The notes below the pieces were generated by a model, which worked only from the letters and a program-made list of their open reading frames with translations, was not told the DNA's origin and searched no databases. Both the position numbers and the translations under genes were made by a program. DNA of 64,000 bases from Welwitschia mirabilis. Lineage: Eukaryota. Of the stretch, positions 1 to 64,000 are shown piece by piece; within the stretch, counting starts at the first letter, position 1, and each line of letters opens with the position of its first letter. Where the stretch lies: NCBI GenBank assembly GCA_051453625.1, contig JBOZIK010000001.1, positions 35,519,860-35,583,859 of the forward strand, given 5' to 3'.

Positions 1-522
1 TAATTTAGTCCCACTTATATAAAATAGTTATCATTCTGATTGTCATGAGGATAATAGTGGGGATGATGCCTCTTAACAATAGATAATTAATTATCTTTTG
101 ACTCCATAATCAATCCTGTAGTTAGCTTCTAAATTTTGTTCCCCCTTATGTTATGAAAATGATAATGGAGACGACACTTTCTCAGAAAAGATGCTTCATT
201 AACTCTAAGCTCCAGTCCAAATTGCTATTATAATAGGCGAATACATTGCTATTATCCCCTCTATCATGGGGACAACAATGGAAATGATCACCTTCCAAAG
301 CTTATTAGGTAAAAAAAATTATTCTTCTTCATCATTAATCTTCCTTCCATATACTAAGTATCAGAACATGCTTGAAATGCCTCTAATTATGCCAAGAATT
401 ATATGTTTCCATGATCATTCCATTGACTCTCCATGATCATCATAATTACAACTAAACCTATATAAATGTATTGCAAAAATATCTAAATAAGCCATCAACT
501 TCCTACAAATTGACATATAACA
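1..522 (-). mobile_element. Partial 3' LTR of an Athila-like Ty3/gypsy element (cut by the window start)
   Basis: Homologous to the LTR at 8801-10145 (e.g. taatttagtccc, catactaagtatcagaacatgc, ttcctacaaattg). Ends ...ataaca at 522 (TGTTA on minus), next to a PPT-like tract (minus aaataggggacta). Confidence 0.75.
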
Positions 523-3219
523 TAGTCCCCTATTTATCCTTGTCAGTCCCTCACAAAATGGGTAATCAACTATATTGCAAGCCAATTTGACTAAGATAAT
601 TATCAACTTAGAAAAATGAAATTTGAGTTCAATTTTATCATGTAGGAGTAGACAATAAAAATCCATTAACTAATATAATTACTAATGTAGTCATAAGCCC
701 CCTACTTAAACACATCATAATAAATGAATGAATGTCATACATATAAACAAATTGTAAAATGTAATAATGATAGTTCAGAAAACGATAATGTGTATGTAAA
801 ATAGGGATACTAAAATTGATGTGTAAAACTAAGTAGTAATAATCTCAAAGAATGATGCATAAAAAGGTCATTAATGTTTTCTATAAGGAGTGAAGTACAA
901 AAGTAAATATAGCATTTTTAGATGATCTAAAATATAGCTGCAAGAAAACTCTATAAGTGGGTTACAATGCTCCTATTAAATAAAGTCCATTTATTCAAGT
1001 GACATGAAATCATATCCAAAAAACTCATTATAAATATGTACCATGAAACCTAAAAATGATCTTTTTAAATTTAAAAATTATAAATTTTTACTTAGTATTC
1101 TAGAAGAAAGCTCAAAGAGATGTCTTTCCCCCACCACATGTGAAGCAAGAGATCCTAGATTGCACAAATGAAAAAGGATAACTATCATTCTGTATGTCAT
1201 GGGGACAACAGACATGAGATAACAACGTTCAAATGAGATGTTAGGATAGATTAGGAAAAATCTAAATAAGTCCAGTAGCAAGAAAGTAGTGAAAAATTAG
1301 AAGAAAAATGGAAGAAAGGTAGAAAGTGAAGAATCATTCTTAAAAACATAACCATGGGGAAAAAGACTTATGAGACGATAATAATGTATTAAGTATAAGG
1401 AAGAAATTATTAAAAGTACTCCTCAAATGTATCCCAAACTCCATGAGTATTCAAGATTATGTAAGTGGATGGATGTAAAACCAAAAGCAAAGAAATGGAA
1501 AAACAGTAATCATAAAAAAAAAGGAATACATCAATCAAAGCAAAAAGAAGGCATCCAATTAAAGTACTAAAAGTAAAAATAGTCCTTATAAATAAAAACT
1601 ATGAGTGAAAATAAAAAGATAACTAGAAAGCTACCAAATGATTGAGTCCTAAGTATGATGTGGAAAAAGATATGAAATGACTTTGAAAAGTCCAAACAAA
1701 ATAACTAAGAAAAACATAATGAAAATGAACAATAAGAAACATGAAGAATATTTCTTACCTACCCAAAATCCTAGTAAAGTACCTTGGTAGAAATCATAAA
1801 ATCATCTAATAATGATGCATAACATAATGTAAAAATTCATAAAGTTCCACTCAAATAGGCAATAATTATGATGATGTCAAGTATGTCTAATGTTATCAAA
1901 TAATGAATGATAAGATAAAAAGCTATTAAAATAGAAACTTANNNNNNNNNNNNNNNNNNNNNNNNNNNNNNNNNNNNNNNNNNNNNNNNNNNNNNNNNNN
2001 NNNNNNNNNNNNNNNNNNNNNNNNNNNNNNNNNNNNNNNNNTTGGACATGTGAATGACAATGATAAGATTGATCAATGACAAGTTGGATGAGCTTATGTA
2101 GAAATGACATTGATAAGAAAAGTCTCGTATCAAGTAAGTAGTGAAAAAGTAGAAGAAAAATGGAAGAAAGGTAGAAAGTGAAGAATCATTCTGAAAAACA
2201 TAACCATGTAGAAAGAGACTTACAAGATGATAATAATGCATTAAGTAGAAGGAAGCATGCTTAAAAGTACTCCTCAAATGTATCCCAAACTCCATGAGCA
2301 TTCAAGATTGTGTAAGTAAATGGATGTAAAACCAAAAGCAAAGAAAAGAAAAAACAATAATCATAAAGAAAAAGAAATACATCAATCAAAGCAAAAGGAA
2401 GGCATCCAATTAAATTACTAAGAGTAAAACAATCCTTATAAATAAAAAGTATGAGTGAAAATAAAAAGATAGCTAAAAAGCTACCAAATGATTAAGGTAT
2501 GATGTGGAAAAAGATACGAAATGACTTTGAAAAGTCCAAATAAAATAACTAAGAAAAAACATAATAAAAATGGACAATGAGAAACATGAAGAATATTTCT
2601 TACCTACCCAAATTCCTAGCAAAGTACCTTGGTAGAAATCATAAAATCACATGATAATGATGCATAAAATAATATAAAAATTCATAAAATTCCACTCAAA
2701 TAGGCAATAATTATGATGATGTTAAGCATGTCTAATGTTATCAAATAATGAATGATAAGATAAAAAGCTATTAAAACAGGAACTTACAAGCGATCAGCTT
2801 AAAACAAAACTAGAATATGAAAAAGTAAAGTGATCATGTGGAAGTACTAGAAATAAGTAAAGAAAATAAGCTTAGAAAATAAGTAATGTCTTTGATGACA
2901 CTAGGTACATCACTAATATTATAGCCTTTAAGTAAAATTGTATTTTACCATGATGAGGGGAGTGCAACCACTATCAAAGGAGTAAGAACTTACATAGCAT
3001 GGTCAACTAATCCCTTAGTGAAGTTCTTACAGCTACCATATCACATTGCCAAAGGCACCTATTGAGAAAATTTACCCTAGTGTCCTTGTGATAGGACATC
3101 ATGAAGGCCATGTTTTAAGATAGAATGAGAAATAACGTGACCTTTTTTTTTTAAATTTTATTTCCCTCTTTCTTTTTATTTTGAGAGTAAATTCTACATG
3201 ATCAAATACTCATAAGGAT
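523..3219 (-). mobile_element. 3' internal non-coding region of an Athila-like element, with a gap-flanking duplicate
   Basis: Collinear with 3441-5530. Carries the conserved ~165-nt motif at 2948-3112. Segment 1281-1941 recurs at ~2131-2786 across an N gap. Confidence 0.7.
2948..3112 (-). other. Conserved post-integrase motif (candidate structured RNA), copy 1
   Basis: GC-richer island with nested inverted repeats, shared with six other copies. Confidence 0.7.
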
Positions 3220-5228
3220 NNNNNNNNNNNNNNNNNNNNNNNNNNNNNNNNNNNNNNNNNNNNNNNNNNNNNNNNNNNNNNNNNNNNNNNNNNNNNNNNN
3301 NNNNNNNNNNNNNNNNNNNTGTTTCAATGAATATCCTATCAACTCTCCATAATCATTAGAATTACATTCTAACGCATATAAATATCCTATAAAAGAACTC
3401 AAAATATACCATCAAGTTCCTACAAATTGGCATCGCAACATATCCTACTACTTAGCCTTATTAGTCTTGAATAAAGTGAGTGATTAACAATATTGTAAGC
3501 CAATTTGATTAAGCTAAATAGTAACTAGAAAAATATATATTAAGTTTAGAAATATTCACTATGAAGATTAAATATCAAAAACTAATTTACTAATATAATA
3601 CCTCTATATAATTCATAATAGATTTGTCATCTTGTATGTCGTCTAGATAACAATGGGGATGATAGGTTTGGAAAATTAGAATGAAAGTGAGATGCTTTCA
3701 AATATGATAATTATAAAAATATAAGTACTAACATCTTTGTTAGTCCGCTACTCAAAATGTTTAACACATTGTAATATAATCATTGAATGTCATACATAAT
3801 AATTATCATAAGATATAACAATGATAAATTCAATAAAATGATGGTGTATATGCATAATTAAGGATAGTGATACTTCAAATGATGTATATAAACTAAGTAC
3901 TGGTAACTCAAAATGATGTATACAAATTCATAAGTGAGTTTTAAATATAATTTACAAAGAAAAAATTCAAAAAATAATCATAGTTTTACTTTCCTTTTTC
4001 AAGGTTTCTTGAGTATCCTAGATCATACCTACAAGAAAGTTCTGTAAGTGCGCTATTATGGCCTGCTAAATAATGTCCATAATGCATACCATACAAGAAC
4101 TATGAAATTATATATAGACTAGTAATCACATATATGTATAATAAAAGCTTAAAATGACCCTCATAAATAAAATTTTTGCTTAAATATCTTTAAGATTTCA
4201 TAGAACTCAATCCTGTATCCCTTATAACAAAATTAATGTGTCACATATTGCAATAAGTTAAGAGGAACTACATCATTCACCTAGAAATTTTAATAACATA
4301 CATGAGACGATAGTGAAAAAGAAGTATCAGGAAAAATAGTGAAGTCTAGGTAGAATTTTGATAATAAATAATAGCAACAATAAAGCCTTCAAAAGTCATT
4401 ATAAATTCTAAAATATAAGTAAAAGCTAAGAATCACCATCTAAGAAATCATGATAAAAGGAGTCAAAAATAGGAAAAACTCAAGGTAATAGAAAAGGATT
4501 AGGCCAAGATAAGGCATGAAAGAGATAGAATCAATATGAAAGAATATCATAAAATGTACCCCAAACTCAATAAGCGTTCAAGATTTTATAAGTGTATGTA
4601 TGCAAAACTAAAAGCAAAGAAATGAAAAAAAAAATATTAACATAAAATAAAAGGAATTCATCAATTAAAATGAAAGGAATGCATTAAATAAAGTACTAAA
4701 AGAAAAAAAAAATCTTATAAATAAAAAATATGGATGAGAATGAAAAAATGACTAGAAAACTACCTAATGATTAAGTCCCAATTATTATATAGAAAAAGAT
4801 ATGGAAATGACTTTGAAACTTTAAAATAAAACAACTAAGGAAAACATAATAAAAGTAGATAATAAGAAATATGAAGGAGATTATTTACCTATTTAAAATT
4901 CAAACCTAAGTCTCTTAGTAGAAATCATAAAATCACCTAAATAATGATGCATGACATAATGAAAAAAACTTTAGAAAGTACCACTTAAATGGGCAATGAT
5001 TATGATAATGTCAAGTATATGTAAAATTTTTAATCAATGAATGATAAAATTAAAAGATACTTAGAAATGAACTTACTTACTCATATTCCAAAACAACACC
5101 AGAATCCAAAAAATGTATAATGATCATGTAAAAGTACTATATGCAAAATGAGTCTAAAAAATAGGAAATACATTTGATGATACCAGGGACATCATTGATC
5201 CCCTAGCCTCTGAGTAAAAATTATTTTT

Positions 5229-5393
5229 CCATAATTAGGGGAGCGCAACCATTATCAAATGAGTAAGAATTCACATAACATGGCCAACTGATCCCTTACT
5301 AGAGTTTCCATAGATATCATATCACACAACCAAAGGCTTCTCTTAGGAAAATTTGCCCCATTGTGCTTGCGGTAGGACATTAGGGTGACCATG
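5229..5393 (-). other. Conserved post-integrase motif, copy 2
   Basis: As copy 1; keeps catggcca...tgaccatg and gcggtag. Confidence 0.7.
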
Positions 5394-8300
5394 ATTTTAG
5401 CTCAGATATGAAAGATCATAGTCATTATTTATTTATTTTCTTTTTTTCTGTCTTTTTTCTTTTTTTTCTTTTCTATTTATTTATTTCTTTTGAAATAAAA
5501 AAAAATCCACATCACCAAGTACTAATAAGGATAAGGGTGAATTAATGAGATTAGAAATAAGGAAGAACACCCAAATAACTAAAGACTCATAACATTGAGA
5601 GAGAATAAAAGAAACCAAGGCATCTTCCTTTAGAATGAAGTTCATATATGAATGAATGTCTTAAGATTGGATGAATTGAATATTGTGATTTAGAATGCCA
5701 AGTAAAAGATTTAGTAATTATGGTAACCTTATAAAGTAAAACATTAGTCAAGTTAAAGATGTTCAAGTAATAGCATGATGTTTATCAAAAGAATCAATTA
5801 AGGAAGAATTTATATAATGGTAGAAGGAAAATTCTAACAAAAATGCTTCTATCATGTTCAAGGCTAATCGATAGATATTTCAATGATGTTTAACCTTCTA
5901 TCCATTAAATTTTAAATTTCCCAAATGTTTAGATTGAAAGTTTTAGCTAAGCCATTTAAACATGTACTTTTTTTTAAAGATAAGAACTTAACTATTGAGA
6001 AGTTTAACTAGTTATATAAAAAGTACGCTTGGGTATTACATGTTTCAGAAAAATAAGGTCCAAATCAAATACAAACCAATTAATAAAACATAAAAGGTAT
6101 ACACTCATTTTTTATTAAAATCAATTGGAGGTAAAAAGAGTAAAATGATAAAACATTGATAGCATAAATTTCAGAATCCAAATAAGGGATAAAGAAGTGA
6201 TAAATTTTATGCACAAATAAGCTCTTATTAACACATTATAAATCATAGTATCATTATATAATGTGTTTAAGGTACTACTTAAAGAATGGATCTAGGAGGT
6301 TTATAAGGGCTTTGAAGAATGTTTAATAAGATTGAGAAGCTTCTTAAGATTCAATTCTAAGCATGTGTTATCAGCGAGATAATAAGGTTTACCCTAATTC
6401 AAAATTCCAAGCTATTCCAAGTTAAACTTTTGAAAAGGATAATCATTAAAAGCACAAGGTAAAGTAATCTTGGTAGGAAAAGAAAGGATGGTACCTAGAG
6501 TATCACATGGATTTCTAAAAGAAAGATATTGAGTAATAGGAGAAATAGATTCTTCAAAATTATGTGTTTTATGAGAGTCAAGAAAGAAACATGGCCTTAA
6601 GATTTATATGAATGTTTAATTAGAAGAGATTGAGAACAATTATCATTACCAAGGACATAAGGTAAGGTGAAAATGGACGTAGAAGTGGAAGTAAGGATGT
6701 GATTTGAAGTTGTATATGAAGGCATAGGTGGCAATGATGTAGAAGTACAAGTAGAATGAATAAGTCTATCCTTCTTAAAATTTGAATGAATCTCTATGGG
6801 CCTTTTATAATGATCAGTCTCTTCACAATTGTCCTTATTACTATTTCATTGGATTGTTTCTTCACTTTTCTTATAATTGGTTGTATTTAATTCTTCCTTC
6901 TTTTATTGAATAGTGCCTTCATTCTCTGAATTATTAGATTCATTAAAAATATTATCAAGGGAAATAAAAGAATTATCTTCATTATTAATTAAAAAATTTT
7001 TAGATTCTTCATGAATAGATTTCTCATCTCGATTATATAGCAGTAAATGGATGGTAGGGATATAATTAAATACTTTAATATCATCATCTAATAAATGGTC
7101 ATACTTGATTTTGATTGTTGAAAGACTGAGTTGTATTATTATTATCTCCTCTTTTCTCATCTCCTAACGGTAAGAGATTAAAGTTTGATTTGAAATTTCA
7201 TCTTCTATTGAAAAGCAAGAATCATTATCATTTATTTCTAAGTTCTCCTCATTTTCCTCAAGGTAGAATAAAGCAAGATATTTTAAGGATGTTGTGTTGT
7301 AAAAGATCCTTGAATTTGTAATAGTATTTATTGCAAGATTTTAACCAAAGTTTATAGGTTTTAATTAGTATTTTCTAGTATTTTATTGGTATGTTCTTGG
7401 CTATTCTCTATTTTATCAATCATTTCTTACATAGGATCATTTTCTTCCTCATAGTAGTTCATAAGAAATAGTTTGTCTTCATAGTAATACATGGGGGATG
7501 GTTGAGATTGATAAAACTAATGGTAAAGAGTTTTCTAGATGAGGTGAAATTTCTAAAATGTGGAGAATCTTCATTTTTATTTCTATATGGGGTTTAAAAA
7601 GAAGAGGTAACAGAATAAGAAGGTTAAAAAGATAAAAGGGGCTAATTCCTACTCTCAATAGAATTTTGTATTATTCTCCTTCCTATAAAACCTTGTAAAA
7701 TGTTTTATCACTATAAACCTCAGAATCATTTAAATGACTTCTCCTTTCTATAAAGATCTCTCTAAGTGTTTTCTTACTATTATCCTCATAATCTTTTAAG
7801 TTTCTTCTCCTTTCAAAAAGAAGTTTCTTAATTTTCCTTCTATCGGTATTCATTAAATCAATCAAGAAGAATGGAATAAGAGAATTTTATTTCAAGATGA
7901 TAAGGAAGAGAAGTACATAATGAAGATCAAGTTTTTTTTCTCTTTGATGTTTCATCATTTTACAAGATTATTGATCCTTAACACTCAAAATATGTGTAAT
8001 GGATGTTTATTTTAACTAACAGAATGTTTACAGAGAGAAAGAAAAATCTAATTCTGAAATAATAAAAATAGAAAAATTCTTCTTCTTTAATTCTTGGAAC
8101 TTATGTACTTGGAATGCGCATACTTAGATTTTGCTCAAAGTCGAATAATCTTTCTTTAATATTTCTATCAATCAAGTTCCACCCCCTTTGATATTCTGTC
8201 TGACTACTAGAATCTACTATGTCCTTGCATGATTAGACAACACACAAAAAACTGAAATTAAAAATAACATCCTACCGTTTACCTGGTCATGGAGATGACC

Positions 8301-8776
8301 AGGGAAATAATGATCACAAAAAAAACTAAACTTAACGAAAAAAATTGAAAAAAATGAAAAATTAAACTATCATTTATTCTATCATTAAAACAACTGCAAG
8401 GATGATGATCACACTACTATAAAATCAAAACTTAAAAACTCAGAGAAAAAAATTACTGGAACTCAGAAAAATCACATTGTCGCTGGGCTATCTTGGGGAT
8501 GATAGAGGAGATGATAGTACTTTTATTACTAAACTAAAAATAAAAGAAAAATCATAAAAATAGAAACTAATATTGAAATTTTAGAACTATCATGCCCAAT
8601 GTCATTGGGATAACATAGAGGATGACAGGGATCTTAAACTACAGAAAATAAAAATTGTAGAAATAGACCTACTTTAAGCTAAGCTAAAAATATAGTACTA
8701 ATTTAAATAAATAATCTAAATTGAAAATTCAAGGTACTTATTTGGTTAGTAATAATTCTTTAGCTCATTATGGTCT

Positions 8777-8794
8777 TTCCTAGCAATGACACCA
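8777..8794 (-). promoter_or_regulatory. Primer-binding site, tRNA-Asp type (Athila), deaminated
   Basis: Minus strand TGGTGTCATTGCTAGGAA versus canonical Athila TGGCGCCGTTGCCGGGGA. All differences are C>T or G>A. Confidence 0.85.
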
Positions 8795-8800
8795 AAATAT

Positions 8801-14112: not shown

Positions 14113-15721
14113 GGCCTAATCAAACATAAAAATGTAGTGTATCATGTGTATTGAGTGGAAATTCCAAAAATTATATCTCATGGAAGCTCTAAAATGACCC
14201 CATAAATTGATTTTTTTTGGTGTAAAAATTATGAAAATAATTTCTACTCTCCTCCAAGAAAAATAATATATCATGTATTAGCTAATAAAGTAAATAAAAT
14301 CATAATAAAATCAAGAAAAATAAAAAACTACTAAAGTGGATCCCACAAAAGGTCAAAAATTGAAAGTTTTCAAATGAAAAATCTAATCAAGTAGAAACAT
14401 AGAGCTTATTATCCTAATCAATTTTGCTAAAATGATCATGCAACTTACAGTTTGTGAGGAAATGAGTTCTAAAGATAAAAACCTAATTTTACCTCATAAA
14501 ATGCAAATTTCAAGTTTCATGAAAAATACATGGTAAAAAATAAATTCATAAGTTCAAAATTAGAGAGCACAAAAAACTAAAAAACATAAGTCCAAAATAT
14601 GATCGAAAAGGCTAAGAAATAATAGGAAAAATTAAAAATAAGTGAGAGAATAAGAACACACCTCATTTTCAAAAATTCACTTGAGTCTTACAATCTAGAG
14701 CATTAAATTTGAGAGTGGGGATTTTAACTCAATGGTAGGACCTAGCGTAATACATCTCTCATGAGGGAATGGAGTGAGAAGGCTCAAAAATGGTAAAAAA
14801 TGGTAAATGAAAAAGGCATTCCACAATTTTAACACACTATTATCTGCTCAGGTCATTGAAATGATAACCTGGAGATGACTATTAGAAAAATCTAGATTTT
14901 CATCCTTCATGTCATCTAGATGATTAGGTGGATGATGAGTGTTTGTCAAAATTTTTTAAAAAATTAAATTTTAATAGTTAACAAATTAAGTTTAGAGCTT
15001 AGTGTAGAAATTTTAGATTCAAAAAATAAATATTTGGGGAATATTTTAACAAATATGGAAGTTGAATAATTAAAAGATTAAGCAATAAAAATGTGCTAGG
15101 TGGAATGAAGCATGTCCATAAGTGTCTAACAAACATGCCCTAATGAAAATGATTATGAACAATGTGTAGAACTCAAAAATAATAAAAATAAACATCACAA
15201 AAATTATAAGGAAACTCATCTAATCAAGAATCATCTTTTTATTAAAAACTAAGCAAAGAAACTACTAAATGTTAAGGTCATAAAATAATAAGAAAATATA
15301 GAAGTGACACTGAAATAACTAACTAAATAATGAAAGAAAAATAAAATAAAAAATGGACATAAGGAACATGAAGAAGATATCCTACCTATCCTAAATTCTA
15401 ACTTAGCAAAATCCTATGGAAGGAATCATAGCATCACTTGATTTAAAATGCATGATTAAATGTATGACCTTGTAAAATTCCATTAGATAAGGTAGTGATT
15501 ATGATGATGCTAAAAATTAAATGCTATAAATAATGAGTGATAAGATCAGAGAGTTGCTAAAATATGAACTTACCTAATTACATCTTAAAACATACACTTG
15601 AATCCTCAAGATTGAAATAATCATGTGAAAAGACTAAGAGCCTAAGAAAGAAGTAATTCTTCTGATGATACCAAAAAACATCACTAATTCCATAGCCTTA
15701 AAGTTTTTATTATTTTATTTT

Positions 15722-15885
15722 CCATGATTAGAGGAGTACAATATAGTTAGAGAAGTAAGAACCTATAAAGCATAGCCAACTGACCTCCTAGTGGAGTTTC
15801 CATAGCTACTATGTCACACTGCTAAAGGCCCCTCTCAGGAAACTTTGCCCTGGTGTACTTGAAGTAGGACATCATAGTAACCATA
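15722..15885 (-). other. Conserved post-integrase motif, copy 3
   Basis: As copy 1; keeps gtggag..ccat, cacactgc and gccctggtg. Confidence 0.7.
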
Positions 15886-16279
15886 TTTTTAAGCTAGTTT
15901 AGATATGAAACATCATGGTCTTATTTTTTATAAATTTATTTATTTTAAAAAAATATAAATTCATCATAATCATATACCCTAAAAGATCAATGTGAAGTAG
16001 TGAAATGAAAGACAAAAAAGAATACACCTAAATAGTCAAAGACCCTTCACCTTTGAGAAAAATATAAGAAATAAAGAATATTACTTCAAAATAAAGTTCA
16101 TGAACATGTGGATGTCTTAAGATGGTTAAATTTAATCTTACCACTATAAAATGCCTAAGTACAAAGACTAGTCATGGAAATAAAATAAATACATAAGTCA
16201 TGTTTACAAGATAATCTAGTAATATTATAACCTCCTCCAAAGGAATAAGCTAAGAGAGAATTTAGAAAATAGTAGGAAG

Positions 16280-19200
16280 GAAGTCCTCCTCATTAAGGAG
16301 AACCTCAAGATAAGTGCTTCTATCATATTAAAGATTGCATCGAAAGATTGCTTATATATTTTCAACCTTTATTCATTAACTTTTAGAATTTATTTAGTGG
16401 TTAAGTCAAAATCTTAATAGAGCTATGTACTTTCTTGATAATGTAAGGACTTAACCATTTTAAGTTTAACTTGTTATGTAGAAGATGTACTCTATATTAT
16501 ATAACAAAACTAGTTGACTAGGTTCAAACTTCTTATGGATTAACTTTTATCATGTTTGAACTTATTTTGGGCTTTGTGAATAAGTTGACAATGTATAACT
16601 CGAGTTTGTTTTTCATCTAAATGATATAATTGAGATAAAAAAGTTTTAATATTTTCTTATAAATTTAGAAGATTAAGTTAATGTATAGAATGATAGGAAT
16701 TATAACAAACATCAATAGGTAAAACATAAACTTTACCATATACAAGTTCATAAGGTGATAAATTAAGAGAATTATGCCAAGTAGTACGATAATCTCAAAG
16801 AACATCATTAAATTTAAAATCCCAATATTTCTCATTAGTAGAGACAATTTTATAAAGCATTTTTAAAATGTCTCTATTAGCATTTTTAGCTTGTCCATTG
16901 GTTTTGTGGATGGTAAGCACAAGCTACTCTATGTTCTATTCTAATGGATAAAAGAATTTTCCTAAAAATATGATTGATAAAATGAATTTCTTGATCAGTA
17001 ATAATTATTCAAGAAAAGCCAAAAAATTGAAAAATTTAAGTTCTAACAAAATTACATATAGTTTGGGCATTACTTAAAGAAGTACGGATTACTTCAATCC
17101 ATATAATCACATAATCAATAACCACTAAGATATAGTTTTTATTCTTAGAAGGTGGTTTAATCAGAACTATGAAATTGATTTCTCAATCATCAAAAGATTC
17201 ACATTTAAGACTAGGTTTAAGGGGCATTTCTTGGTAATGTATAATACTACCATAACATTGACATGCATCACACCTTTTAGCATAATTAAAAGAGTCCTAA
17301 AAATGATTAGCCAATAAAATATAGAGTAAAAATTTTTCATTAGTATTTTTTGACTACTAAAATATCCACCAAAAACCCCACCATGATAATGACAAATGAT
17401 ATTTGATTTTTCCCATTCTAACACACATTTTCTCATGATTTAGTTTTTGCATCTATAGTTATGATGTGGCTCTATCTATTCAAAATTACCTATTCTATGG
17501 AGCAAAGATTTTCTATGATTATGAGTTCAATTATATAGTGTTTTTAAAGTAACAAGATAATTGGAAATATTAGCATACCAAGAAGGGAAATGAGTATAAG
17601 ATATAATAAAAAGTTATTCATCTAGAAAAGAATCATTAATAGAAAGATCGTTAAAAGAATAAAGGTGTAATAAATGATCTACTACATTATTATGTTTTCT
17701 TGCCTTATCTATGATGGTAAGATTAAATTCTTACATTAAGAGAATTCATCTAATCAATCTAGCATCAAAATATTTCTTAGTTATTAGGTATCTAATACTT
17801 GCATGATCTATGTAAATGTTTGTATGAAAGCTTAAAAGATAATGTCTAAGATTATTCAGATAAAAGATTATCGCTAATATTTCTCTCTCAATAGTTGTAT
17901 AATTTGTTTAAGCTTTGGATAACTTTTTATTATGGTAAGATATAACTTTAAAATTATTTTCATATTTTTGTTCAAGTATCTCACCCACAGTAATATTACT
18001 AGCATCACACATTAGATTAAAATTATTATTCTAGTTAGATCATATTCTAATAGGTGTAGAAGAGATTTTATCCTTAAGTGCATTGAAAGAAAGCTAACAA
18101 GATTTATTCCATTCAACTTTTACTTCTTTCTCTAGTTACAAGTGAAGGAGTTTCATAATTTTGTATGAAGTGATGATAAAAACCATAATGTCCAAAAAAA
18201 GATTGAANNNNNNNNNNNNNNNNNNNNNNNNNNNNNNNNNNNNNNNNNNNNNNNNNNNNNNNNNNNNNNNNNNNNNNNNNNNNNNNNNNNNNNNNNNNNN
18301 NNNNNNNCCATGTAGTCACATAATCAATAACTACTAAGATGTAATTTTTATCCTTTGAAGGTGGTTTAATTAGACCTATGAAATTGATTTCTCAATCATC
18401 AAAAGATTCACAGTTAAAAATAGGTTTAAGGGGCATTTCTTGAAAATGTATAATACTATCATAACATTGACATACATCACACCTTTTAGCATCATTAAAA
18501 GAGTCCTAAAAACGATTACGCTAATAAAATCTAGAGTAAAAATTACTATTTTTTAACTACTAAAATGTCCATAAACGACTCTACCATGATAAAGACAAAT
18601 GATATTTAATTTTTCCCATTCTAACACACATTTTCTCATGATTTAGTTTTTGCATCTACAGTCAAGATGTGGCTCTATCTATTCAAAATTACTTATTCTA
18701 TGGAGCAAAGATTTTTCTATAATTATGACTTCAATTATATGGTGTTTTTTAAGTAATAAGATAATTGGAAATATTTGCATACCAAAAAGGGAAATGAGTA
18801 GAAAATATAATAAAAAGTTATTCATCTAGAAAAGAATCATTAATATAAAGATCATTAGAAGAAGGAAGGTGTAATAAATGATCTACTACATTATTATGTT
18901 TTCCTGCCTTATCTATGATGGTAAGATTAAATTCTAACATTAAGAGAATTCATCTAATCAATCTAGCATCAAAATATTTCTTAGTTATTAGGTACCTAAT
19001 ACATGATCTATGTAAATGTTTATATGAAAGCTTAAAAGATAATGTCTAAGATTATTAAGACAAAAGATTATGGTTAATATTACTCTCTTAGTAGTTGTAT
19101 AATTTGTTTAAGATATGGATAATTTTTTATTATGATAAGATATAACTTTAAAATTATTTTCATATTTTTGTCCAAGCATCTCACCCACAGTAATATTACT

Positions 19201-22281: not shown

Positions 22282-22393
22282 AAGAGATTCAATTACTGGT
22301 TAAACATCACATCACACTTTTTGGAATGTCAGTATATGTTGAAATTTTATAAAGGTGATTGTGATATTTGTTTCCAAGCCTGATGATTATGAT

Positions 22394-22650: not shown

Positions 22651-22658
22651 ATATTGAC

Positions 22659-23652: not shown

Positions 23653-23759
23653 GAGATAATACTTTACTGACCTACTACACTAGAATGTGCTGGTTCAGCT
23701 TTCTCCTTTACTTTTCAATGTATTATAAAATTTCATTTGATATCCTATTTTTTTTAAAA

Positions 23760-25960
23760 TTAAATAAGAGGATAAATAAAAGGGATAAAGGATAATTAAG
23801 TAGAAGGATAAAGTGGGAACATAGAATTTCTATACTAGAGTTGCCCCCTATTTGATGTAAAGTGAAATATGAGCTTGACATAAAAAATATAAGAAAAATG
23901 AACATGTATCTTAATCAAGATTTTACATGTGCAAGTCATTTCAGTATAATGGCAAAGATCCAAAATGATGAAAGTGATTTGATTAAATGGTAAAAACATA
24001 ATATGAATAAGGTTTAGACATGCATATAAGAGAAATAAAAAATGTATCATGGATGGTAATGAAAGATAATAAAAGAATAGGTTCAATTATACAAAATAGA
24101 AATGAGTTAAAATAACTATATGGTAAAAAGAAGTTGGGTATTGAAAATGGATAAGTTAAATAAGAAGTAAAATTATCCTTAGGTACGTTTATAAGTAAAT
24201 GCAAAGAATGACTTTGACATAATTAATTTCAAATATTAAAAAAGATTACTTGAAAATGGACAAACAGAGGGATAAACGACATTGATTATAATGTCTCTAA
24301 ATATTAACCTAGCAATGTCTATTGGTATGAATCATAAAACTATTTGATACCATTAACAATGGTTTGATGCTAAACCACACAGAGTTTCAGGTGATTAGGA
24401 TAGTGATTATGAGAATGTTTATGGTCAAAGTATCAATATAATGTTAGCACTATAACTCAATCTAATCATTGTTTGTAATAGCAAATGACAACTTAATAAT
24501 TTATCATTTAATAATTAATATATTCTGAATGATCATGAAATCATAGCTTTAAAGTCATGGAAAAATAAGTTAATGGAATTTTTAGAAGAAATCATCTATC
24601 ATCATGAGGGGAGTGTAACCATTGTCAAGAGCATAAGGATCTACAAGTTGAAGCCAGATTGTAATCAACTGATACTATAGTGAAGTTTCCACAACTACCA
24701 TATCACATTGTAAAAGGTACCTCTTAAGAATATTTATCCTAGTGTACTTGCAGTAGGACATCATGATTTTTTTTTTGTGGTGTATGATATTGATATTTTA
24801 CCAATTGATGTGATTTTTCTTTTTTTTATTTTCTTTTTTTTTGAATATTAATTGATCATTGGAATGATAAATTGTAAGATTCACTAGTAAAGACAAGTAT
24901 TAGATTTGATACAAATTGTTATTAGGATAGTAGAACATGAGACATTAGTTGTCATAGACATAGGAATATATTAAGATTGAGTGAAATCCAATCTTACAAT
25001 TGTAAATATTTCAAAGTAGGAAAGATACTTTAATAAAAACTTGAATGTAGTTTAACATAGAACCAAATGAAATTGACAATCAAATAAATAAATGACTTTA
25101 ATCAAGAAATGCTATTAAGGAGTCATTTAGGTAAGGGCCAAGAAAAGACTTATCTCTCGATCAAAAGGGTCCTCCTACTCAATTAATTCTATTATGCCAA
25201 GAGTACTATGATAATTATTAATGTAATCTTAGTTGTTATCCATTGAGGCTAAGTTTTCTTAGCATCAAAATTAAGAACTCAATGAAGTCATTTGAAATAC
25301 ACTTCTTTGTAAAGTAATTCATTTATCACTTAGGAGCTAAATTATTATAAGAATGTATCCAAATGTCATGCAGTAAAATAAAATAAATTGATTGAAGATA
25401 AATGTAGATGATGAGTTTAAGAGGAATTGAGTATAGAATGGAAACGAAAAACTACATAATGAACTATTAAAGAAAAAGAGGTAGATAAAACACACTATCA
25501 CTAGATATAAGAATGGATGTTTTACATAAGAAGGTGGCATAAAATGATTTGTGCAAAAGTCTAAGCTTTAAGAGAGAGTAAATAAGTGGTATCATAGCAA
25601 GGATCAATATAGTATATGCTATCATTGTCATCATCATCTTCCATAAGGGGAGTGTCATGAAATGAAATGTTAATTAGAGAATCTCAACAAGGGATAAAAT
25701 GACATCTACTAAGTATAAATGACACATGATGATTACTAATATAAATCTACTAGAATCTGACACATATGGTTGGCCATGATCTGTAAAACTCAAAAAAACA
25801 AAGAAAACATGAAACCTATGTAACATATGAAAACATGCTATTTTAAATAATCAGTAATTACATGGATGTATGTCACATTTTATTATGAATAAAATAGTAA
25901 CAATAAATGCATGAAATGAGTAAATAAAACACAGTAAAAATGATGTGAGTTATGAATTTT
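23760..25960 (-). mobile_element. 3' part of another non-autonomous Athila-like element (integrase C-terminal remnant, conserved motif, AT-rich spacer)
   Basis: Motif at 24598-24766. 25140-25340 on minus resembles the integrase tail (KW.....K..SN...VN..L). Collinear with 59830-60843 and 61800-64000. Confidence 0.6.
24598..24766 (-). other. Conserved post-integrase motif, copy 4 (variant with an insertion outside the core)
   Basis: Core caactgat...ggacatca kept; outer stem degraded. Confidence 0.65.
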
Positions 25961-26039
25961 ATTGATAGTATGATCAAAGCTAGAATAAGTTTATTGGTTC
26001 TTTATCCTTAATGTCAGTCAGATATTTGAGTTTATATGT

Positions 26040-26903
26040 TTCTTTATTAAATTTTGTAATATGATAAATGACCCTAACCAATTTGGTGAAAATTTTAAGA
26101 TTGGAATTCCAAGTTGAACTCAGCGATAATTGATTTCCACTTTATTAAATGAGTACTCCCAGTAGAATATTCAAGTAGATGTTTGAATAAATTCTAATTA
26201 TTGATCACAAGTGTTCTATTTATCACCATATAATGCAAAAATTTCTATGAAGTAAAGACTAGAATCAAAGATGATTTTTCTACTTTAAAGTAATTTTTTT
26301 CATATTGGTGTAATATTCTATTGATGTAGTAATTTGGATGATCTTAGTGTAATCCATTTCATTAAAAGATCATTGTGATAATTGATGATAATGTTAGAAA
26401 AGGTAAAGAAAAAAGGATTAATTAGTTTATATATACTTAAAATAGGGGTAAGCATGAGATATTCTTCGATCTTATTAAAATCCTTTTAGAAATTTTCATC
26501 CCATTTGAATTCATTGTCTTTCTTGAACAAATGCATAAATGGTTTACATTGATCTATTAAAGTTGAAACAAATTGATGTATTACTTGTATTTTACCTTAA
26601 GGCTACATAATTGTTTCAAGTTACATGATGATGGCATGTCAGTAATTACTTTAATCTTTTTTGGATTAATTTCTATCCTTCCTTTTAAAACTATAAACCA
26701 TAAGAGTTTTCATGATGGCATATGAAAGACACATTTCTTTGGATTGAGGCATAAATTGTAACATCTTGCTTGCTTGAAAAGTTGTTTCAAATCATGTGGA
26801 TGATCATCTATTATTTATAATTTAACTACAACATTATCAACATAATATTTTACATTATGATATATCAAGTTATGAAATATATGTGTCATTGCTCATTAGT
26901 ATG
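26040..26903 (-). pseudogene. Tat/Ogre-type gypsy RT-RNase H fragment
   Basis: Minus translation AMTHIFHNLI...YYVDNVVVK...LCLNPKKCVF...GRIEINPKKIKVITDMP..CNLKQL...CKPFMHLFKKDNEFKWD. Confidence 0.8.
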
Positions 26904-26904
26904 C

Positions 26905-38150: not shown

Positions 38151-38154
38151 ATAT

Positions 38155-46700: not shown

Positions 46701-47110
46701 TGAAATAACTAACTAAATAATGAAAGGAAAATAAAACAAAAAATGGACAGAAGGAACATAAAGAAGATAGCCTACCTACCTTAAATTCTAACTTAGCAAA
46801 CTTCTATGGAAGAAATCATAACATCACATTATTTAAAATACATGATCAAATGTATGACCCTATAAAATTTCATTCAATAAATCAATGTTTATGATGATGC
46901 TAAAAATCAAATGCTCTAAACAATGAGTGATAAGATCAAAGAATTACTTAAAAATAAACTTACCTGCTAACATCTCAAAACATACATTTAAATCCTCAAA
47001 AGTGAAATGATCATGTGAAAAGTTTAAAAGTCTAAGAAATAAGTAATCCTTCTAATAATACCAAGAATAACACTAATTATATAGCCTTAAAGTTTTTATT
47101 ATTTTATTTT

Positions 47111-47268
47111 CCATGATGAGGGGAGTGCAATATAGTCAGAGAAGTAAGGGCCTATGAAGCATGGCTAACTGACCTCCTAATGGAATTGTCATAACTATTA
47201 TATCACACTGCTAAAGGCCCCTCTTAGGAAATTTGCCTTGATGTACTTACAGTAGGACATCACGGTGA
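47111..47268 (-). other. Conserved post-integrase motif, copy 5
   Basis: Counterpart of copy 3 in block B. Confidence 0.7.
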
Positions 47269-50200
47269 TTAGACTAGTTTAGATATAAAAAATCATGGTT
47301 TTATTTTTCTTTAATTTATTTTTTTTTTAAAAAATAAATTCGTCATGGTCATATGCCCTAAAATATAAAGGTGAAGTGGTGAAATAAAAGATAAAAAAGA
47401 ACATACCTAAATAACCANNNNNNNNNNTTCCTTTAAGGAAAATATAATAAATAAAGCATCTTCCTTTAAAATGAATTTTACAAATATGTAAATGTCATAA
47501 TATTGGGTGAATCCAATCTTACCACTGTAAAATGCCTAAGTATAAAGACTAGTCATGGAGATAAAAGAAATACATAAGTCATGTTTAAAAAATAATTCAA
47601 TGACATTATAACATCCTCAAAAGGAATAATCTAAGAGAGAATTTAGAAAATAATAGGGAGGAAGTCCTTCTCATTAAGGAGAACCTCAACATAAGTGCTT
47701 CTATCATGTTCAAGATTACATCAGAAGGTTGCTCGTATATTTTCAACATTTGTTCATTAACTTTCAGAATTTCTTTAGTGGTTAAGTCAGAAATCTTAAC
47801 AGAGCCATTAGAATGTACTTTCTTGACAAGGTAAGGGCTTAACCATTTTAAGCTCAACTTATTAGGTAGAAGATGTACTCTAGGATTATATAAAAAAACT
47901 AGTTGACCAGGTTCAAACTTCTTATGGGTTAACTTTTTATCATGTTTGAACTTATTTTGGGCTTTATGAATAAGCCGATAATGTATAGCTCAAGTTTGTT
48001 TTTCATCTAAATGATATAATTGAGATAAATAATTTTTAAGATTTTTTCTAAATTTACAAGATTAAGTTGATAGATAGAATGATAGGAATTATAACAAACA
48101 TTAATAGGTAAAACACAAACTTTATTATATACAAGTTCATAAGGTAAGAAACTAAGAGAATTATGTCAAGTAGTATGGTAAGCTCCAAGAACATCATTAA
48201 GTTTAAAATCCCAAGATTTCTCATTGGTAGAGACAAGTTTTTGAAGCATTTTTTTTTAAATTTCTCTATTGGCATTTTCAGCTTGTCCATTAGTTTGTGA
48301 ATCATAAGCACAATCTACTCTATGTTCTATTCTAATGGATAAAATAAGTTTTCTAAAAAGATGATTGATAAGATAAGTTCCCTAATCACTAATGATTATT
48401 TGAAAAAAGCCAAAACATTGAAAAATTTGAGTTCTAACAAAGTTACAAACAGTTTGGACATCATTTAAAGAAGTAGGAATTACTTAAACCTATTTAGTCA
48501 CATAATTAATAGCCACTAAGATGTAGTTTTTATCCTTAGAAAGTGGTTTAGTTGGATCTGTAAAATTGATTCTCCAATCATTGAAAGATTCACATTTAAT
48601 AATAGGTTTGAGAGGAATGTCTTGAGAATGTATAAGGCTACCATAACATTGACATGCATCACATCTTCTAGCATAATTAAAAGAGTCTTAAAAAAGGTTA
48701 GGTCAATAAAATCCAGAGTAAAGAACTTTCATTGCTATTTTCTAATCACTAAAATGTTCATTACAAATCCTACCATGATAAACATAAATGATATTTACTT
48801 TTTCCCATTCTAGCACATATTTTCTCATGATTTGGTTTTTCATCTATAATAAATATGTGGTTCTATCTATTCATAATCACTTATTCTATGGAAAAAATAT
48901 TTTCTCTGATTATAACTCCAATTATGTAGTGTTTTTAAAGTAATAAGATAATTGATAATATCAGAATACTAAGAAGTGAAATGATTTTAAGATATGATAA
49001 AAAGTTATTCATCTAGAAAAGAATCATTGATAGAAAGATCATCAGAAGAAGAAAGGCATAATAAATAATCTACTACATTGTTATATTTTCCTATCTTATT
49101 TGTGATGGAAAGATGAAATTCTTACATTAAGAGAATTTATCTAATCAATCTAGAATCAAAAACTTTCTTAGTTATTAAGTTTCTAATAGCTACATGATCT
49201 ATGTAAATGTTTGTATGGAAGCATAAAAGATAATGTCTAATATTATTGAGGTAAAAGATTATGGCTAACATTTCTCTCTCACTAGTTATATAATTTATTT
49301 AAGATTTGAATATTTCTTTATTATGATAAGATATAACTTTAAAATTATTTTCATATTTTTGTCCAAGCACCTCATCCACAACAATATTACTAGCATCACA
49401 CATTATCTTAAAATCCTTATTCCAGTTGGATTAAATTACAATAGGTGCGAAAGAGATTTTATGCTTAAATATATTGAAAGCAAGCTGATAAGATTTATTT
49501 CATTAAAATTTTTCTTTTTTCTCTAGTAACAAGTAAAGGATTTTACAAATTTTAGCATTATCTTATATGAAGTGATGATAAAAATCATAATGTCCAAAAA
49601 AAGATTGAATTTATTTAACATTGGTTGGAGGAGTTAAGTTTTTAATGATGCTTACTTTTTTAGGGTCCATGCTAATTCCTTTATTAGAAATGTAATGATT
49701 TAGGACTATTCCATTATCAACAAAAAAAATATCTTTTTATGATTTAAATAAACCATACTCTATGCATCTATCAAGGACTTTCTCTAATCTTTCTAAGATT
49801 TGGTTAAAGATTTTTCCAAAGATTGAGAATTAATCTATAAATATTTCTATCGAATGCTCTAACATGTTAAAAAAAATACCCATAATAGCATGTTAAAAAG
49901 TTTCAAGAGTGTTTTAAAGTCCAAAAGGAATTTGTCTAAAAGTAAATGTTCTAAAAGGTGAAGTAAAATTTGTTTTAGCCTAGTATTCACTAGCTACACA
50001 AACTTGATTATAACCACTATATCCATCAAGAAAGTAATAAAAAGCATGATCTTGAATTCTATCAAGTATTTGGTCAAGAAGGTTATAGGTCAATGATCTT
50101 CTTTCATGACTTTATTAAGTTTTCTAAAATCTATGAACATTCTTCATTTTCCATCTTTCTTTACTACCACAATTAAAGGATTAACCCATTCACTATCTGA

Positions 50201-59718: not shown

Positions 59719-60687
59719 GACATATCACTTTACTAGCTTACAACACTAGAATGTGTTGGTTCTACTTTCTCCTTTACTTTTTAATGTATCACAAAATTTT
59801 ATTTAATATCCTAGTTTTCTTTTTAAAAAAATTAAATAAGAGGATAAATAAAAGGGAGAAAGGCTAATGAAGTAAAAGGATGATGCATAAAAAGTGGAAA
59901 TGTAGAATTTATATATTATAGTTATTCCCCTTTTGATGTAAAGAAAAATATGAGCTTGACATCAAAAATATAAGAAAAAGGAATAAATGTCTTAATGAAG
60001 GTTTACATATGCAAGTCATTTTACTATAATGATGAGGATCCAAAATAATGAAAAGTGACTCAATTAAATGGTAAAGACATAATATGAATAAGCTTTAGAC
60101 ATGCATATGAGATAATTAAAAAAATGTATCATGGATGATGATGAAAGATGATAAAAGAATAGGTTCAATTGTATGAAACAGAAATGAGTTGAAATAACTA
60201 TATGGTAAAAAGGAGTTGGGTATAAAAAATGGATAAGTTAACTAAGAAGTGAAATTATCCTTAGATAAGTTTGTAAGTAAATGCAAAAAATGACTTTAAA
60301 ATAAGTAATTTTAAATATTAATAAAGATTAGGTAAAAATAGACAAACAAAGGCATGAAGAAGATTGATTACAATGTCTCTAAATACTAACCTAGCAATGT
60401 ATATTGGTATAAGTCATAAAACTATTTAATACCATTAATAATGGTTTAATGCTAAATAACACAGAGTTTCATGTAATTAGTACAATGATTATAAGAATGT
60501 TTATGGTCATTTTGCAAAGTATTAATATAATATTAGGATTATAACTCAATCCAATCATTGATTGTAATGGTAAATGACATCTTACTAACTTATCATTCAA
60601 TAATCAATATATTCTGAATTCTTACAAAATCATAGCTTTGGAGTTATGGAAAATCAAGTAAATGGAATTTTTAAAAGACATCATCTA

Positions 60688-60843
60688 TCATGATGTGAGG
60701 AGTGTAACCACTGTCAAAAGCATAAGGATCCATAAGCCAAATCCAGATCATAACCAACTAATACTTTGGTGGAGTTCCCATGGCTACCATATCACACTAC
60801 CAAAGGTGCCTCTTGGGAATATTTACCCTAGTGTGCTTGCAGT
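60688..60843 (-). other. Conserved post-integrase motif, copy 6 (cut by gap)
   Basis: gtggagttcccatggctaccatatcacactaccaaaggtgcctcttgggaatatttaccctagtgtgcttgcagt. Confidence 0.65.
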
Positions 60844-61799: not shown

Positions 61800-64000
61800 T
61801 TTATAAATAAAATGGAGAAAGGCTAATGAAGTAAAAGGATGATGCATAAAAAGTGGAAATGTAGAATTTATATATTATAGTTGTCCCCATTTTGATGTAA
61901 AGCAAAATATGAGCTTGACATAAAAAATATAAGAAAAATAAACATGTGTCTTAATCAAGGTTTACATATGCAAGTCATTTCACTATAATGATGAGGATCC
62001 AAAATGATGAAAAGTGACTCGATTAAATGGTAAAAACATAATATGAATAAAATTTAGACATGCATATGAGAGAATTAAAAAAATGTATCATGGATGGTGA
62101 TGAAAGATGATAAAAGAATAGGTTCAATTGTATGAAACAGAATTGAGTTGAAATAACTATATGGTAAAAAGAAGTTGGGTATAAAAAATGGATAAGTTAA
62201 CTAAGAAGTGAAATTATCCTTAGCTAAGTTTGTGAGTAAATGCAAAGAATGACTTTAAAATAATTAATTTTAAGTATTAATAAAGATTATGTAAAAAAAG
62301 ACAAACAGAGGCATGAAGGAGATTGATTACAATGTTTCTAAATACCAACCTAGCAATTTCTATTAGTATGAGTCATAAAACTATTTGATACTATTAATAA
62401 TGGTTTCATGCTAAACAACATAGAGTTTCATTTAATTAGGACAATGATTATAAAAATGTTTATAGTCATTTTGCAAAGTATTACTATAATATTAGGATTA
62501 TAACTCAATCCAATCAATGACTGTAATGGTAAATGACATCTTACTAACTTATCAGTTAATAATCAATATATTCTCAATGCTTGTGAAATCATAGATTTGG
62601 ATTTATGAAAAATCAAGTAAATGGAATTTTTAGAAGACATCATCTATCATGATGTGAGGTTTGTAACCAGTATCAAAAGCATAAGGATCCATAGGCCAAA
62701 GCTAGATTGTGACCATCTAATACTTCAGTGGAGTTCCCATGGCTACCATATCACACTACCAAAGGTGCCTCTTAGGAATATTTACCTTGGTGTACTTGCA
62801 GTAGGACATCATGATTTTTTTTTTGGGTGGTGTATGGTATTGATATTTTATTTTAACTTGAATTCCCTTTTTTTAATTTTTTTGAACATTAATTAATCAT
62901 TAGAATGATAAATTATAAGATTCACTAGTAAAGACAAGTATTGAATATAATACAAATTAATATTAGGACAACAAAACATGAGATATTGAATGTCATAGAC
63001 ATAGGAATGTCTTAAGATTGGGTGAAATCTAATATTACCACTAGAAATATCCCAAAGTAGAAAAAAGTACATTTATAAAAACTCAAATGTGGTTTAACAT
63101 AAGACCAAACAAAATCAATAATCAAATAAATAAATAACTTTAATTAAGAAATGCTATTAAGGAGTCATTTAGATAAGGTCCAAGGAAAGACTTACCTCTT
63201 GATCAAAGGGTCCTCCTACTCAATTTATTCTATCATGCTTATAGTACTATGATAAGTATTAATGTAATATTAACTATTATTGATTGACACTAAGTTTTCT
63301 TAGCATTGAAATTAATAACTGAATGAAGTCATTAGAAATGCACTTCTCTGTAAAGTAAGTATTTGACCACTTAGTATTTAACTTATTATAAGAATGTATC
63401 CAAACATCATGTAATAAAATGAAATAAATTGATTGAAGATAAATGTTGATGATGAGTTTAAGAAGAACTAAGCATAGAATGGAAATGGAAAAGTACAAAT
63501 GAATTATTGAAGAAAAATTAGTGGGTAAAACACACTATCATTAGATAGTAGAATAGATGTTTTGCATAAAAATGTAGCATTAAAGGATTTATGCAAAAGT
63601 GTAAGCTATAGGAGAGAGTGAATGGATGGTATCATAACAAAGGTAAGTATAGTATGCTATCATCGTCATCATCATCTTCTACAAGGGGAGCCACATGAAA
63701 TGGAATGTCAATTAGAGAAGCTCGATAAGGGATAAAACAATATCTACTAAGAATAAATGGCACTTAATAATTACCAACATATAACTCTACTAGAATCTAA
63801 CGCATATGGTCAATCATGAGCTGTAAAACTCAAACAAACAAAGAAAACATGAAACCTATGTAACATATAAAAACATGCTATTCTAAATAATAAATAATTG
63901 CATAGATGTATGTCACATTTTATTTTGAATGAAATAGTAATAATAAATGCATGAGACGAGTAATGAAAACATAGTAAAAAGGATGTGAATTATGAATTTT
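61800..64000 (-). mobile_element. 3' part of the non-autonomous Athila-like element, block B (also 59830-60843)
   Basis: Collinear with 23760-25960. Motif at 62647-62813. ORF 63277-63498 ends in an integrase-tail-like KWSNTYFTEKCISN..VN. Confidence 0.6.
62647..62813 (-). other. Conserved post-integrase motif, copy 7
   Basis: Counterpart of copy 4 in block B. Confidence 0.65.

Follow-up and report, generated by a model that had tools for sequence, protein, structure and literature searches.

A conserved non-coding block beside a purine-rich tract after pol in decayed Athila-like retrotransposons of Welwitschia mirabilis

The stretch of Welwitschia mirabilis DNA studied here (assembly GCA_051453625.1, contig JBOZIK010000001.1, positions 35,519,860-35,583,859, forward strand; 64,000 nt in total and referred to as the window) is AT-rich, with a G+C content of approximately 27% and 14 runs of N, and consists of decayed retrotransposons together with a few pieces of host genes (PfkB-like and emp24-like open reading frames, ORFs). 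We report that a block of approximately 215-230 nt is present on the sense (minus) strand 0.4-0.5 kb past the integrase end of decayed Ty3/gypsy elements. The block is real, strongly conserved, expressed and non-coding, and it is situated beside a purine tract after pol. An earlier note on the window had described part of it as a 165-nt foldable RNA-like element, with seven copies downstream of integrase in Athila-like elements.

All seven copies given there (at 2948, 5229, 15722, 24598, 47111, 60688 and 62647) were found using BLASTN and nhmmer, and all of them are on the minus strand. When positions 2948-3112 served as BLASTN query, the identity to each of the other six was 72-77% in alignments of 151-167 nt, and an nhmmer profile of the aligned copies, run against the whole window, gave the same 7 places with E values from 6e-63 to 5e-51; no further copy was detected by nhmmer in the window, where the next match had an E value of 2.2. 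Specifically, copy A is located at 2899..3115 (E 2.5e-61) and extends the original finding by approximately 50 nt on the 3' side, copy B at 5181..5396 (E 5.8e-61; 77% identity to A by BLAST), copy C1, on which sequencing reads map, at 15672..15888 (E 6.3e-63), and C2, the twin of C1 in a segmental duplication, at 47059..47274 (E 1.3e-59). The three remaining copies are D1 at 24548..24777 (E 5.9e-55), which has 11 extra nt in the middle of the block, D2 at 60637..60843 (E 4.7e-51), which is truncated by the N gap 60844-60943, and D3 at 62598..62824 (E 3.3e-57). The length of approximately 165 nt was an underestimate: the true extent of the block is approximately 215-230 nt (e.g. 2899-3115), the additional approximately 50 nt being on the 3' side on the minus strand, and in the alignment an 11-nt indel mid-block separates A, B and C from D. 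A literature search of limited scope returned no description of such a 170-220-nt block, and a 23-nt degenerate pattern of its core was present at 0 places in viral contigs; four matches to this pattern in metagenome contigs were rejected as chance, their likeness being limited to the 23 nt.

While the seven places stand, they do not represent seven separate elements. At the N gaps at 1942, 10580, 11339, 13302, 18208, 33501, 36866, 52138 and 60844 both flanks carry one and the same stretch, at approximately 87-91% identity (e.g. 1268-1941 and 2120-2786, 12036-13301 and 13402-14667, 30718-33500 and 33601-36385, and 58943-60843 and 60944-62802, the last pair at 90%). The pattern, which applies to most of the 100-N gaps (8 in one count), looks like an assembly artefact, i.e. 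uncollapsed overlaps of error-prone contig ends, and as a consequence copy counts and distances in the window are inflated. The copies at 60688 and 62647 are positioned on either side of the 100-N gap 60844-60943 in the 90% pair and were counted as one locus, which they most likely are. Moreover, 10157-25960 and 44392-64000 form a direct segmental duplication of approximately 80-83% identity (83% for 13402-18207 against 44810-49609), which includes the C and D elements as well as the host-gene pieces; 15722 and 47111, and likewise 24598 and 60688, were hence counted as pairs. The seven copies thus represent four independent lineages: A (2948), B (5229), C (15722 = 47111) and D (24598 = 60688 = 62647).

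The likeness covers four lineages whose flanks no longer align, which agrees with what the earlier note had said of diverged flanks. A, B and C have 700-1300 nt in common, and what D has in common with these three is the block, one patch of 32-89 nt approximately 300 nt further on, and nothing else. Among the block copies 180 of 243 differences are transitions, an excess as expected for old methylated repeats.

To study the conservation across the family, two sets of DNA contigs (X1 and X5, from two related genomes) and two raw RNA-seq runs were mapped on positions 14900-16700 (the C1 element) at a likeness of at least 80%. The number of contigs mapped was 27,571 for X1 and 31,726 for X5, and the summed depth peaks on the block. 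For the two bins covering 15754-15875 within the block it was 61,730 and 37,032 (X1) and 140,498 and 26,712 (X5), and for the two bins covering the integrase C-terminus at 16181-16302 it was 66,140 and 39,485 (X1) and 84,778 and 56,860 (X5). In the A-rich linker between them (15937-15997) the depth was 423 and 337 for X1 and X5, respectively; after the block (15266-15753) it was 5,700-28,000 and 8,000-30,000, and below 15266 it was 400-5,000 and 500-4,200. In both genomes the depth on the block is accordingly on par with that on the integrase C-terminus and 10-100 times above that on the flanks, i.e. throughout the family the block is as well conserved as coding sequence, and the family is extremely abundant in both genomes. 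In the run labelled as a second organism the family is about as rich as in the first, and of the words sampled from the unique stretch 21000-25900, 77% are present there.

These data bear on the possibility that the block is under no constraint at all and represents an island of likeness that arose through recombination (template switching) between subfamilies, or in which a higher G+C content has slowed the apparent decay. The G+C content of the block is indeed 37-42% compared to approximately 27% around it, and its identity between lineages (67-77%) is not above the identity of the A and B flanks (74-79%). On the other hand, tens of thousands of contigs in two organisms match at 80% or more where the flanks are 10-100 fold lower, and the likeness spans four lineages with unalignable flanks; we therefore consider an absence of constraint extremely unlikely.

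The RNA-seq reads that mapped, 81 and 27 in the two runs, are concentrated on the block. Most of these fit in part and continue into unlike sequence (73 of the 81 and all 27), so that diverged, expressed relatives have just the block in common with the mapped element; one consensus of read ends has the 11-nt extra of the D type. Neither pile-ups of read starts or ends nor splice joints were seen on the mapped stretch.

Pfam domains were searched for on frames in which stops were read as X. The C1 element has an integrase core at 16906..17158 on the minus strand (rve, E 1.7e-07), a reverse transcriptase (RT)-linked RNase H at 17724..18108 on the same strand (RT_RNaseH, E 4.9e-24; RT_RNaseH_2, E 2e-22) and an RT motif near 19850, while RT and RNase H remnants of the D1 element are present at 26115..26901 (minus strand; RVT_1, E 5.5e-4; RT_RNaseH, E 1.1e-4; tblastn to C1). 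The gypsy order RT, RNase H and integrase on one strand is hence found, completely in C1 and as RVT_1 and RT_RNaseH in D1. Approximately 500 nt before the block in C1 and D3 lies a sequence that we take to be the integrase C-terminal motif (for D3 the match is weak, tblastn E 0.14). In B the integrase C-terminal region is represented by likeness at the DNA level, 4757-6021 corresponding to 15259-16483 in C, and the upstream side of A is truncated by the N gap 3220-3319. A position downstream of integrase, as in the earlier note, thus holds wherever it is visible (by Pfam and tblastn in C and D, and by DNA likeness in B). The block is also present in the B element, in which no RT, RNase H or integrase core was detected. 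After pol, no Pfam family, env-like or ATHILA-specific ones included, was found in the sense frames, which fits envelope-less members such as Diaspora.

Additional support for the Athila-like label comes from a tRNA-Asp-type primer binding site (PBS) at 8777..8794 (minus strand). It starts 5 nt past a sequence ending in ...CA, is located upstream of the B internal region, and matches the ATHILA tRNA-Asp/Asn site (TGGCGCCGTTGCC) at every position when C>T and G>A are allowed. The 18-nt transition-tolerant pattern used has 1 match in the window where 0.08 are expected, so that one element shows a PBS. Its last 5 positions are those that we assume for the tRNA-Asp/Asn site. The first 13 positions were taken from the preprint 10.64898/2026.03.20.713144, and this 13-mer in its unchanged form has no match within 3 mismatches in the window. 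The PBS supports the label, and the probable placement in the Athila lineage rests on domain order and PBS. The 8300-9700 stretch beside the PBS has no partner except its assembly duplicate. Between PBS and block B lies an internal region of approximately 3.3 kb (5480-8776) with no detectable gag or pol domain, in which a 66-nt tandem repeat is present (7674-7821, 2.3 copies, 78% matches); PBS, internal region and block B possibly belong to a non-autonomous element, and C1, a long terminal repeat (LTR), B, an LTR and A possibly form a tandem array in which neighbours share LTRs.

The block is non-coding. We considered that it might be a coding remnant, either the start of a short extra ORF on the sense strand (ATG ATG TCC TAC...) or, on the antisense strand, the C-terminal part of an ORF comparable to TRP28 in Retand elements, given that the conservation begins at a conserved ATGATG, that the sense frame of B is open for 48 codons and that a plus-strand frame is open for 91-94 codons in D2 and D3. 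The 11-nt indel, however, shifts the two halves into different frames in A, B and C relative to D on both strands, stops are present in all six frames in most copies, and codon periodicity, measured as an excess of third-position changes, is not significant (P 0.11). In a six-frame comparison D matches A, B and C equally well in all frames, which is what likeness of the DNA only would give. No Pfam match was found at the block among the 201 ORFs of at least 48 amino acids or in the read-through frames, and when the plus-strand frames of 13402-15900 and 22400-24800 (three each) were searched with an E cut-off of 0.1, no family, PF04195 included, was returned. An exhaustive HMMER search with a sense-frame profile starting from the conserved ATGATG gave 3 hits among 1.84 billion proteins, in which no true relative was recognised; two of these were, on inspection, tandem-repeat proteins having one short motif in common, and the third, P0004, had 11 short stretches. 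For the antisense ORF of D2 and D3, word-based protein searches at near and longer lengths returned no relatives and the protein atlas no usable match. Taken together a coding origin appears very unlikely.

A feature absent from the earlier note is a purine-rich tract just upstream of the block (all positions on the minus strand). In A, the tract at 3148..3177, a candidate polypurine tract, has a purine fraction of 0.87 over 30 nt and ends 32 nt before the block; in B, 5445..5474 (0.97) is the core of a tract of approximately 80 nt; in D1, the tract is located at 24814..24843 (0.93); and in C1, where an A-rich tract at 15919..15948 has a fraction of 0.70, the mapped depth is the lowest of the stretch (the 423 and 337 given above). 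The best 30-nt purine fraction within 110 nt upstream of the block is 0.70-0.97 in all six copies compared, and at least 0.77, the 99th percentile of the background, in five of them; a random 110-nt span reaches these fractions with P 0.004-0.34. The tract ends 24-48 nt before the block in all lineages. In C it is followed by CCA and TGATG, and the same TGATG opens the block 45 nt later, whereas in D a second run of ten A (24767-24776 in D1) abuts TCA and then the TGATG that opens the block. The order on one strand in C and D is accordingly RT, RNase H, integrase, linker, purine tract and block.

With the purine tract just upstream, the simplest reading is that the block represents the junction between polypurine tract and unique 3' region (U3), i.e. 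the start of the 3' LTR, and that it takes part in plus-strand priming and end recognition, the family being an envelope-less one of the Athila lineage, similar to Diaspora. We give this reading an even chance. It is consistent with the segments downstream: the A, B and C loci have further segments in common past the block, in the same order, and one of these is also present 0.8-1.35 kb upstream of the PBS, which fits an LTR-like unit of approximately 3-4 kb that would begin near the block. Non-autonomous copies would then be expected to have the block in any case, as part of their LTR. According to this model, a poorly conserved linker of 0.3-0.4 kb after the end of pol would be followed by the long purine-rich tract, read as the polypurine tract, and 0-45 nt past it by the block opening with TGATG, which would constitute the first 170-220 nt of U3 in a long LTR (approximately 2.4 to 4 kb). 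RNase H would spare the purine tract as plus-strand primer, and the sequence directly after the tract would become the left end of the cDNA, to be recognised by integrase. The imperfect inverted repeats CCATGATG...CATCATGG around the block, together with an internal hairpin of approximately 62 nt, may shape the RNA or DNA at the primer site, in the way proposed for Sireviruses, which have an inverted repeat where polypurine tract and LTR meet. As U3 of the 3' LTR would be part of the genomic RNA, the block could also work as RNA.

Several observations weigh against a start of the LTR at the block. In the window the block never occurs twice per element, and no 5' LTR is seen to begin with it; going upstream from the PBS, the first block encountered is that of C1, 4.0 kb away when assembly duplicates are counted once, and this one is itself preceded by pol. 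With a single block per element, the LTR reading requires tandem elements with shared LTRs. Moreover, the bases directly before the TGATG of the block are not purine-rich in A, B and C, the long tract ending 24-48 nt earlier, and in A and D1 the bases directly after the long tract do not read TG. More purine runs are present downstream, a 24-nt all-purine run approximately 1.15 kb past the block in D and G-rich runs at 1123-1135 and 691-707, of which none is followed by TG and none is conserved across lineages. A candidate end of the D LTR (TTATCA, near 22407 and 58472) was chosen for its terminal inverted repeat, in which 13 of 15 positions match; this is equalled at 7 of 2240 sites, and the candidate shows no likeness to the LTR end beside the PBS. 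Finally, in the part of a study of LTR models considered here (PMC3601003) the LTR motifs of the modelled clades are short, while the LTRs of plant Metaviridae could not be modelled, and for U3 to open with a conserved stretch of 120-220 nt would be out of the ordinary.

The block might instead precede the true polypurine tract and LTR, as a piece of the 3' untranslated sequence in the internal region of the genomic RNA, and function as a structured RNA. In this case a sense-strand domain, in which the helix CCAUGAUG/CAUCAUGG closes off a central hairpin and a second arm, would act in packaging, dimerisation, 5'-3' cyclisation or primer selection; we regard this as unlikely. Compatible with an internal position is a unit of approximately 1.3 kb past the block, similar in length in A and B, before the LTR-like segments begin, and the concentration of the RNA-seq reads on the block also favours a function as RNA. 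The structure that the earlier note had proposed fares less well than the notion of an RNA domain as such. Its nested pairings are complementary, 83.4% of 193 cells forming pairs compared to 32-47% when the partners are slid, but their covariation is no higher than in column shuffles: for the 34 pairs 335, 377, 162, 481 and 190 of 500 shuffles reach the observed values. The fold of the 165-nt span has an alignment-shuffle z of -0.3, and in all 12 folds of single copies the central hairpin behaves like shuffled sequence (z -0.74 to +1.16). The outer helix CATGGTCA/TGGCCATG does not exist in all copies, D having an A run in place of the 5' arm. Most members of the family also lack the "deamination-corrected" CG (...GAC-GTGG...) that the note places in the 3' arm of the hairpin, since approximately 98% of the mapped depth at 15813 reads the other letter and differs from C1. 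That G-U is more frequent than A-C, as had been noted, holds (32 compared to 21 cells) but is not decisive for the strand.

A longer fold, predicted with RNAalifold for the full block, consists of the closing helix CCAUGAUG/CAUCAUGG, the hairpin, a small hairpin and the second arm (domain 2; alignment columns 98-148), and its consensus energy is -19.2 kcal/mol for the sense strand and -15.2 kcal/mol for the other strand. Relative to column-shuffled alignments of six sequences the predicted fold has a z of -2.75 on the sense strand (3/300) and of -2.04 on the other; with one copy per lineage (two choices) the values drop to -1.97 and -1.38 on the sense strand and to -0.98 and -0.19 on the other. 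Domain 2 alone has a z of -2.55 (7/300) on the sense strand and of 0.02 on the other. In this fold 90.2% of the cells form pairs, again compared to 32-47% with slid partners, and for three of five measures (the share of paired cells, the changes on both sides and the covariation score) 0 of 500 shuffles reach the observed values. The helix 98-107/139-148 shows double changes in 4 of 9 pairs, including a flip from G-U to U-G that is impossible by deamination, and the 11-nt indel lies inside a predicted loop. Set against this, prediction and pair counts share one set of six sequences (four lineages), which biases the counts towards the longer structure, and the structure conservation index is 0.49. 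Moreover, the majority of the double changes go from C-G to U-A, as happens under heavy deamination without selection. The support for a longer fold on the sense strand is consequently suggestive only, and a folded-RNA role is unproven.

With respect to known RNA families, a cmscan-type Rfam search at gathering thresholds gave 0 matches in the whole window, in keeping with the earlier note, in which no described family was recognised. At E up to 10 on 62500-62950 and 5100-5500, two chance-level hits were obtained outside or marginal to the block, with 11.2 and 18.4 bits compared to thresholds of 80 and 39. No observation favours a role as ribozyme, internal ribosome entry site or export element, all of which had been suggested as well. 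In its widest form the structured-RNA idea would make the block an undescribed retrotransposon RNA domain beside the plus-strand primer site, needed in cis for primer selection, cyclisation or packaging by the whole Athila-lineage family, autonomous or not; this, too, seems doubtful to us. What remains of the earlier description, and is supported, is a non-coding and probably cis-acting piece on the genomic-RNA strand of gypsy elements of the Athila lineage.

A function at the level of DNA would not depend on any fold. The 8-mer CCATGATG, or near copies of it, is present before the purine tract, directly after it, at the start of the block and, inverted, at the block end (example sites in the alignment, on the minus strand, are 3190-3205, 15905-15915, 15880-15890 and 15672-15685), and with the inverted copy at its end the block is bounded by 8-nt inverted repeats. 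The block could therefore be a regulatory module, i.e. a cluster of protein binding sites with direct and inverted copies of the 8-mer that serves as an enhancer or insulator in U3 or as a target of a host or element protein. Such a module would account for copies both around the tract and at the two ends of the block, and the signal of the full-block fold on both strands (z -2.75 and -2.04) is as for a DNA palindrome; in addition, Sirevirus LTRs bear symmetric repeated motifs for which a regulatory role has been proposed (PMC2829016). It does not account for the strand-specific signal of domain 2, and with LTRs of 2.4-4 kb the promoter would be expected far from the 5' end of U3. We rate a DNA module as rather improbable.

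Other features of the window concern the elements and host-gene pieces around the block copies. ORFs matching PfkB carbohydrate kinases (21659-22003, 51682-51999 and 52556-52756, all on the plus strand; best E 9e-16) are situated between the D and C elements on the opposite strand and represent a fragment or exon of a host gene that was duplicated together with the segment. The second copy of the duplication has 5.1 kb extra (53336-58465), with an emp24/GOLD-like ORF at 53398-53721 and a copia RT at 56235-56513, both on the plus strand. Remnants of Ty1/copia elements at 28700-36400 on the minus strand (RVT_2 at 30262-30450 and a weak Pol_BBD at 31914-32177) break the region upstream of the D1 element, and a second gypsy RT piece at 36479-37330 resembles 26912-27206. 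The G+C fraction is 0.16-0.22 at 26000-28000 and 38000-42000, beside two long N gaps (27207-28109 and 39402-39877). Noteworthy tandem arrays are absent from the window, and ARAGORN detected no tRNA.

Among known systems, compared here on excerpts of the respective reports, ATHILA elements have 20-bp seeds at the junction between internal region and 3' LTR that are conserved in 97% of the elements (10.64898/2026.03.20.713144). They resemble the present case in belonging to the Athila lineage, in having conserved non-coding sequence at the polypurine tract and the first LTR bases that is kept in non-autonomous copies, and in having a tRNA-Asp/Asn PBS a few bases after the 5' LTR. Compared by description only, they differ in that the seed is 20 bp long in Brassicaceae while the block spans 170-220 nt, and the LTR end beside the PBS reads ...CTGCA here (...CACACTGCA) and not, as in ATHILA, TATCA. 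In Diaspora, an envelope-less soybean member of the Athila lineage, the pol stop is positioned 128 bp before a polypurine tract that abuts a 2524-bp LTR, and the tRNA-Asp PBS starts 5 bp after the LTR (PMC1142308). The layout is alike in the lack of an env-like ORF, the short gap between pol stop and polypurine tract, the PBS 5 bp past the LTR and the very long LTR (2524 bp compared to approximately 2.4 to 4 kb as estimated here); this likeness is one of layout and not of sequence, and the excerpt considered reports no conserved block or fold at the LTR start.

The polypurine tract of Sireviruses is surrounded by an inverted repeat, whose proposed role is to make the tract accessible to RNase H or to help this enzyme define the primer (PMC2829016), and in both cases a conserved non-coding inverted repeat is tied to the polypurine tract across very divergent elements. 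Sireviruses, however, are of a different superfamily, and the arms of their repeat, 19-28 bp long, border the tract on the left and lie 18-28 bp inside the LTR on the right, a geometry that is not found here, where the 8-nt CCATGATG flanks the tract and its inverted copy is at least 170 nt downstream. The TRP28 ORF of Retand (PMC11963269) is likewise a conserved feature between pol and 3' LTR of a non-chromovirus gypsy element, and one lineage here has an open antisense frame; in contrast to Retand there is no PF04195 match, the region is short and the frame is not kept across lineages. The block is hence much longer than known junction motifs, and its inverted-repeat geometry is different.

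Non-autonomous retrotransposons have to retain their conserved non-coding signals, and such signals serve well as seeds for lineage-specific annotation, as in ATHILAfinder and the Sirevirus tool MASiVE. If the block is the start of U3, it would be an ordinary though unusually long junction motif, and if the sense-strand fold is true, it would offer a rare handle on plus-strand primer choice or RNA packaging in plant gypsy elements. Since it is alignable across subfamilies with unalignable LTRs and linkers, and belongs to a very abundant family, the block would provide a handy marker of the lineage.

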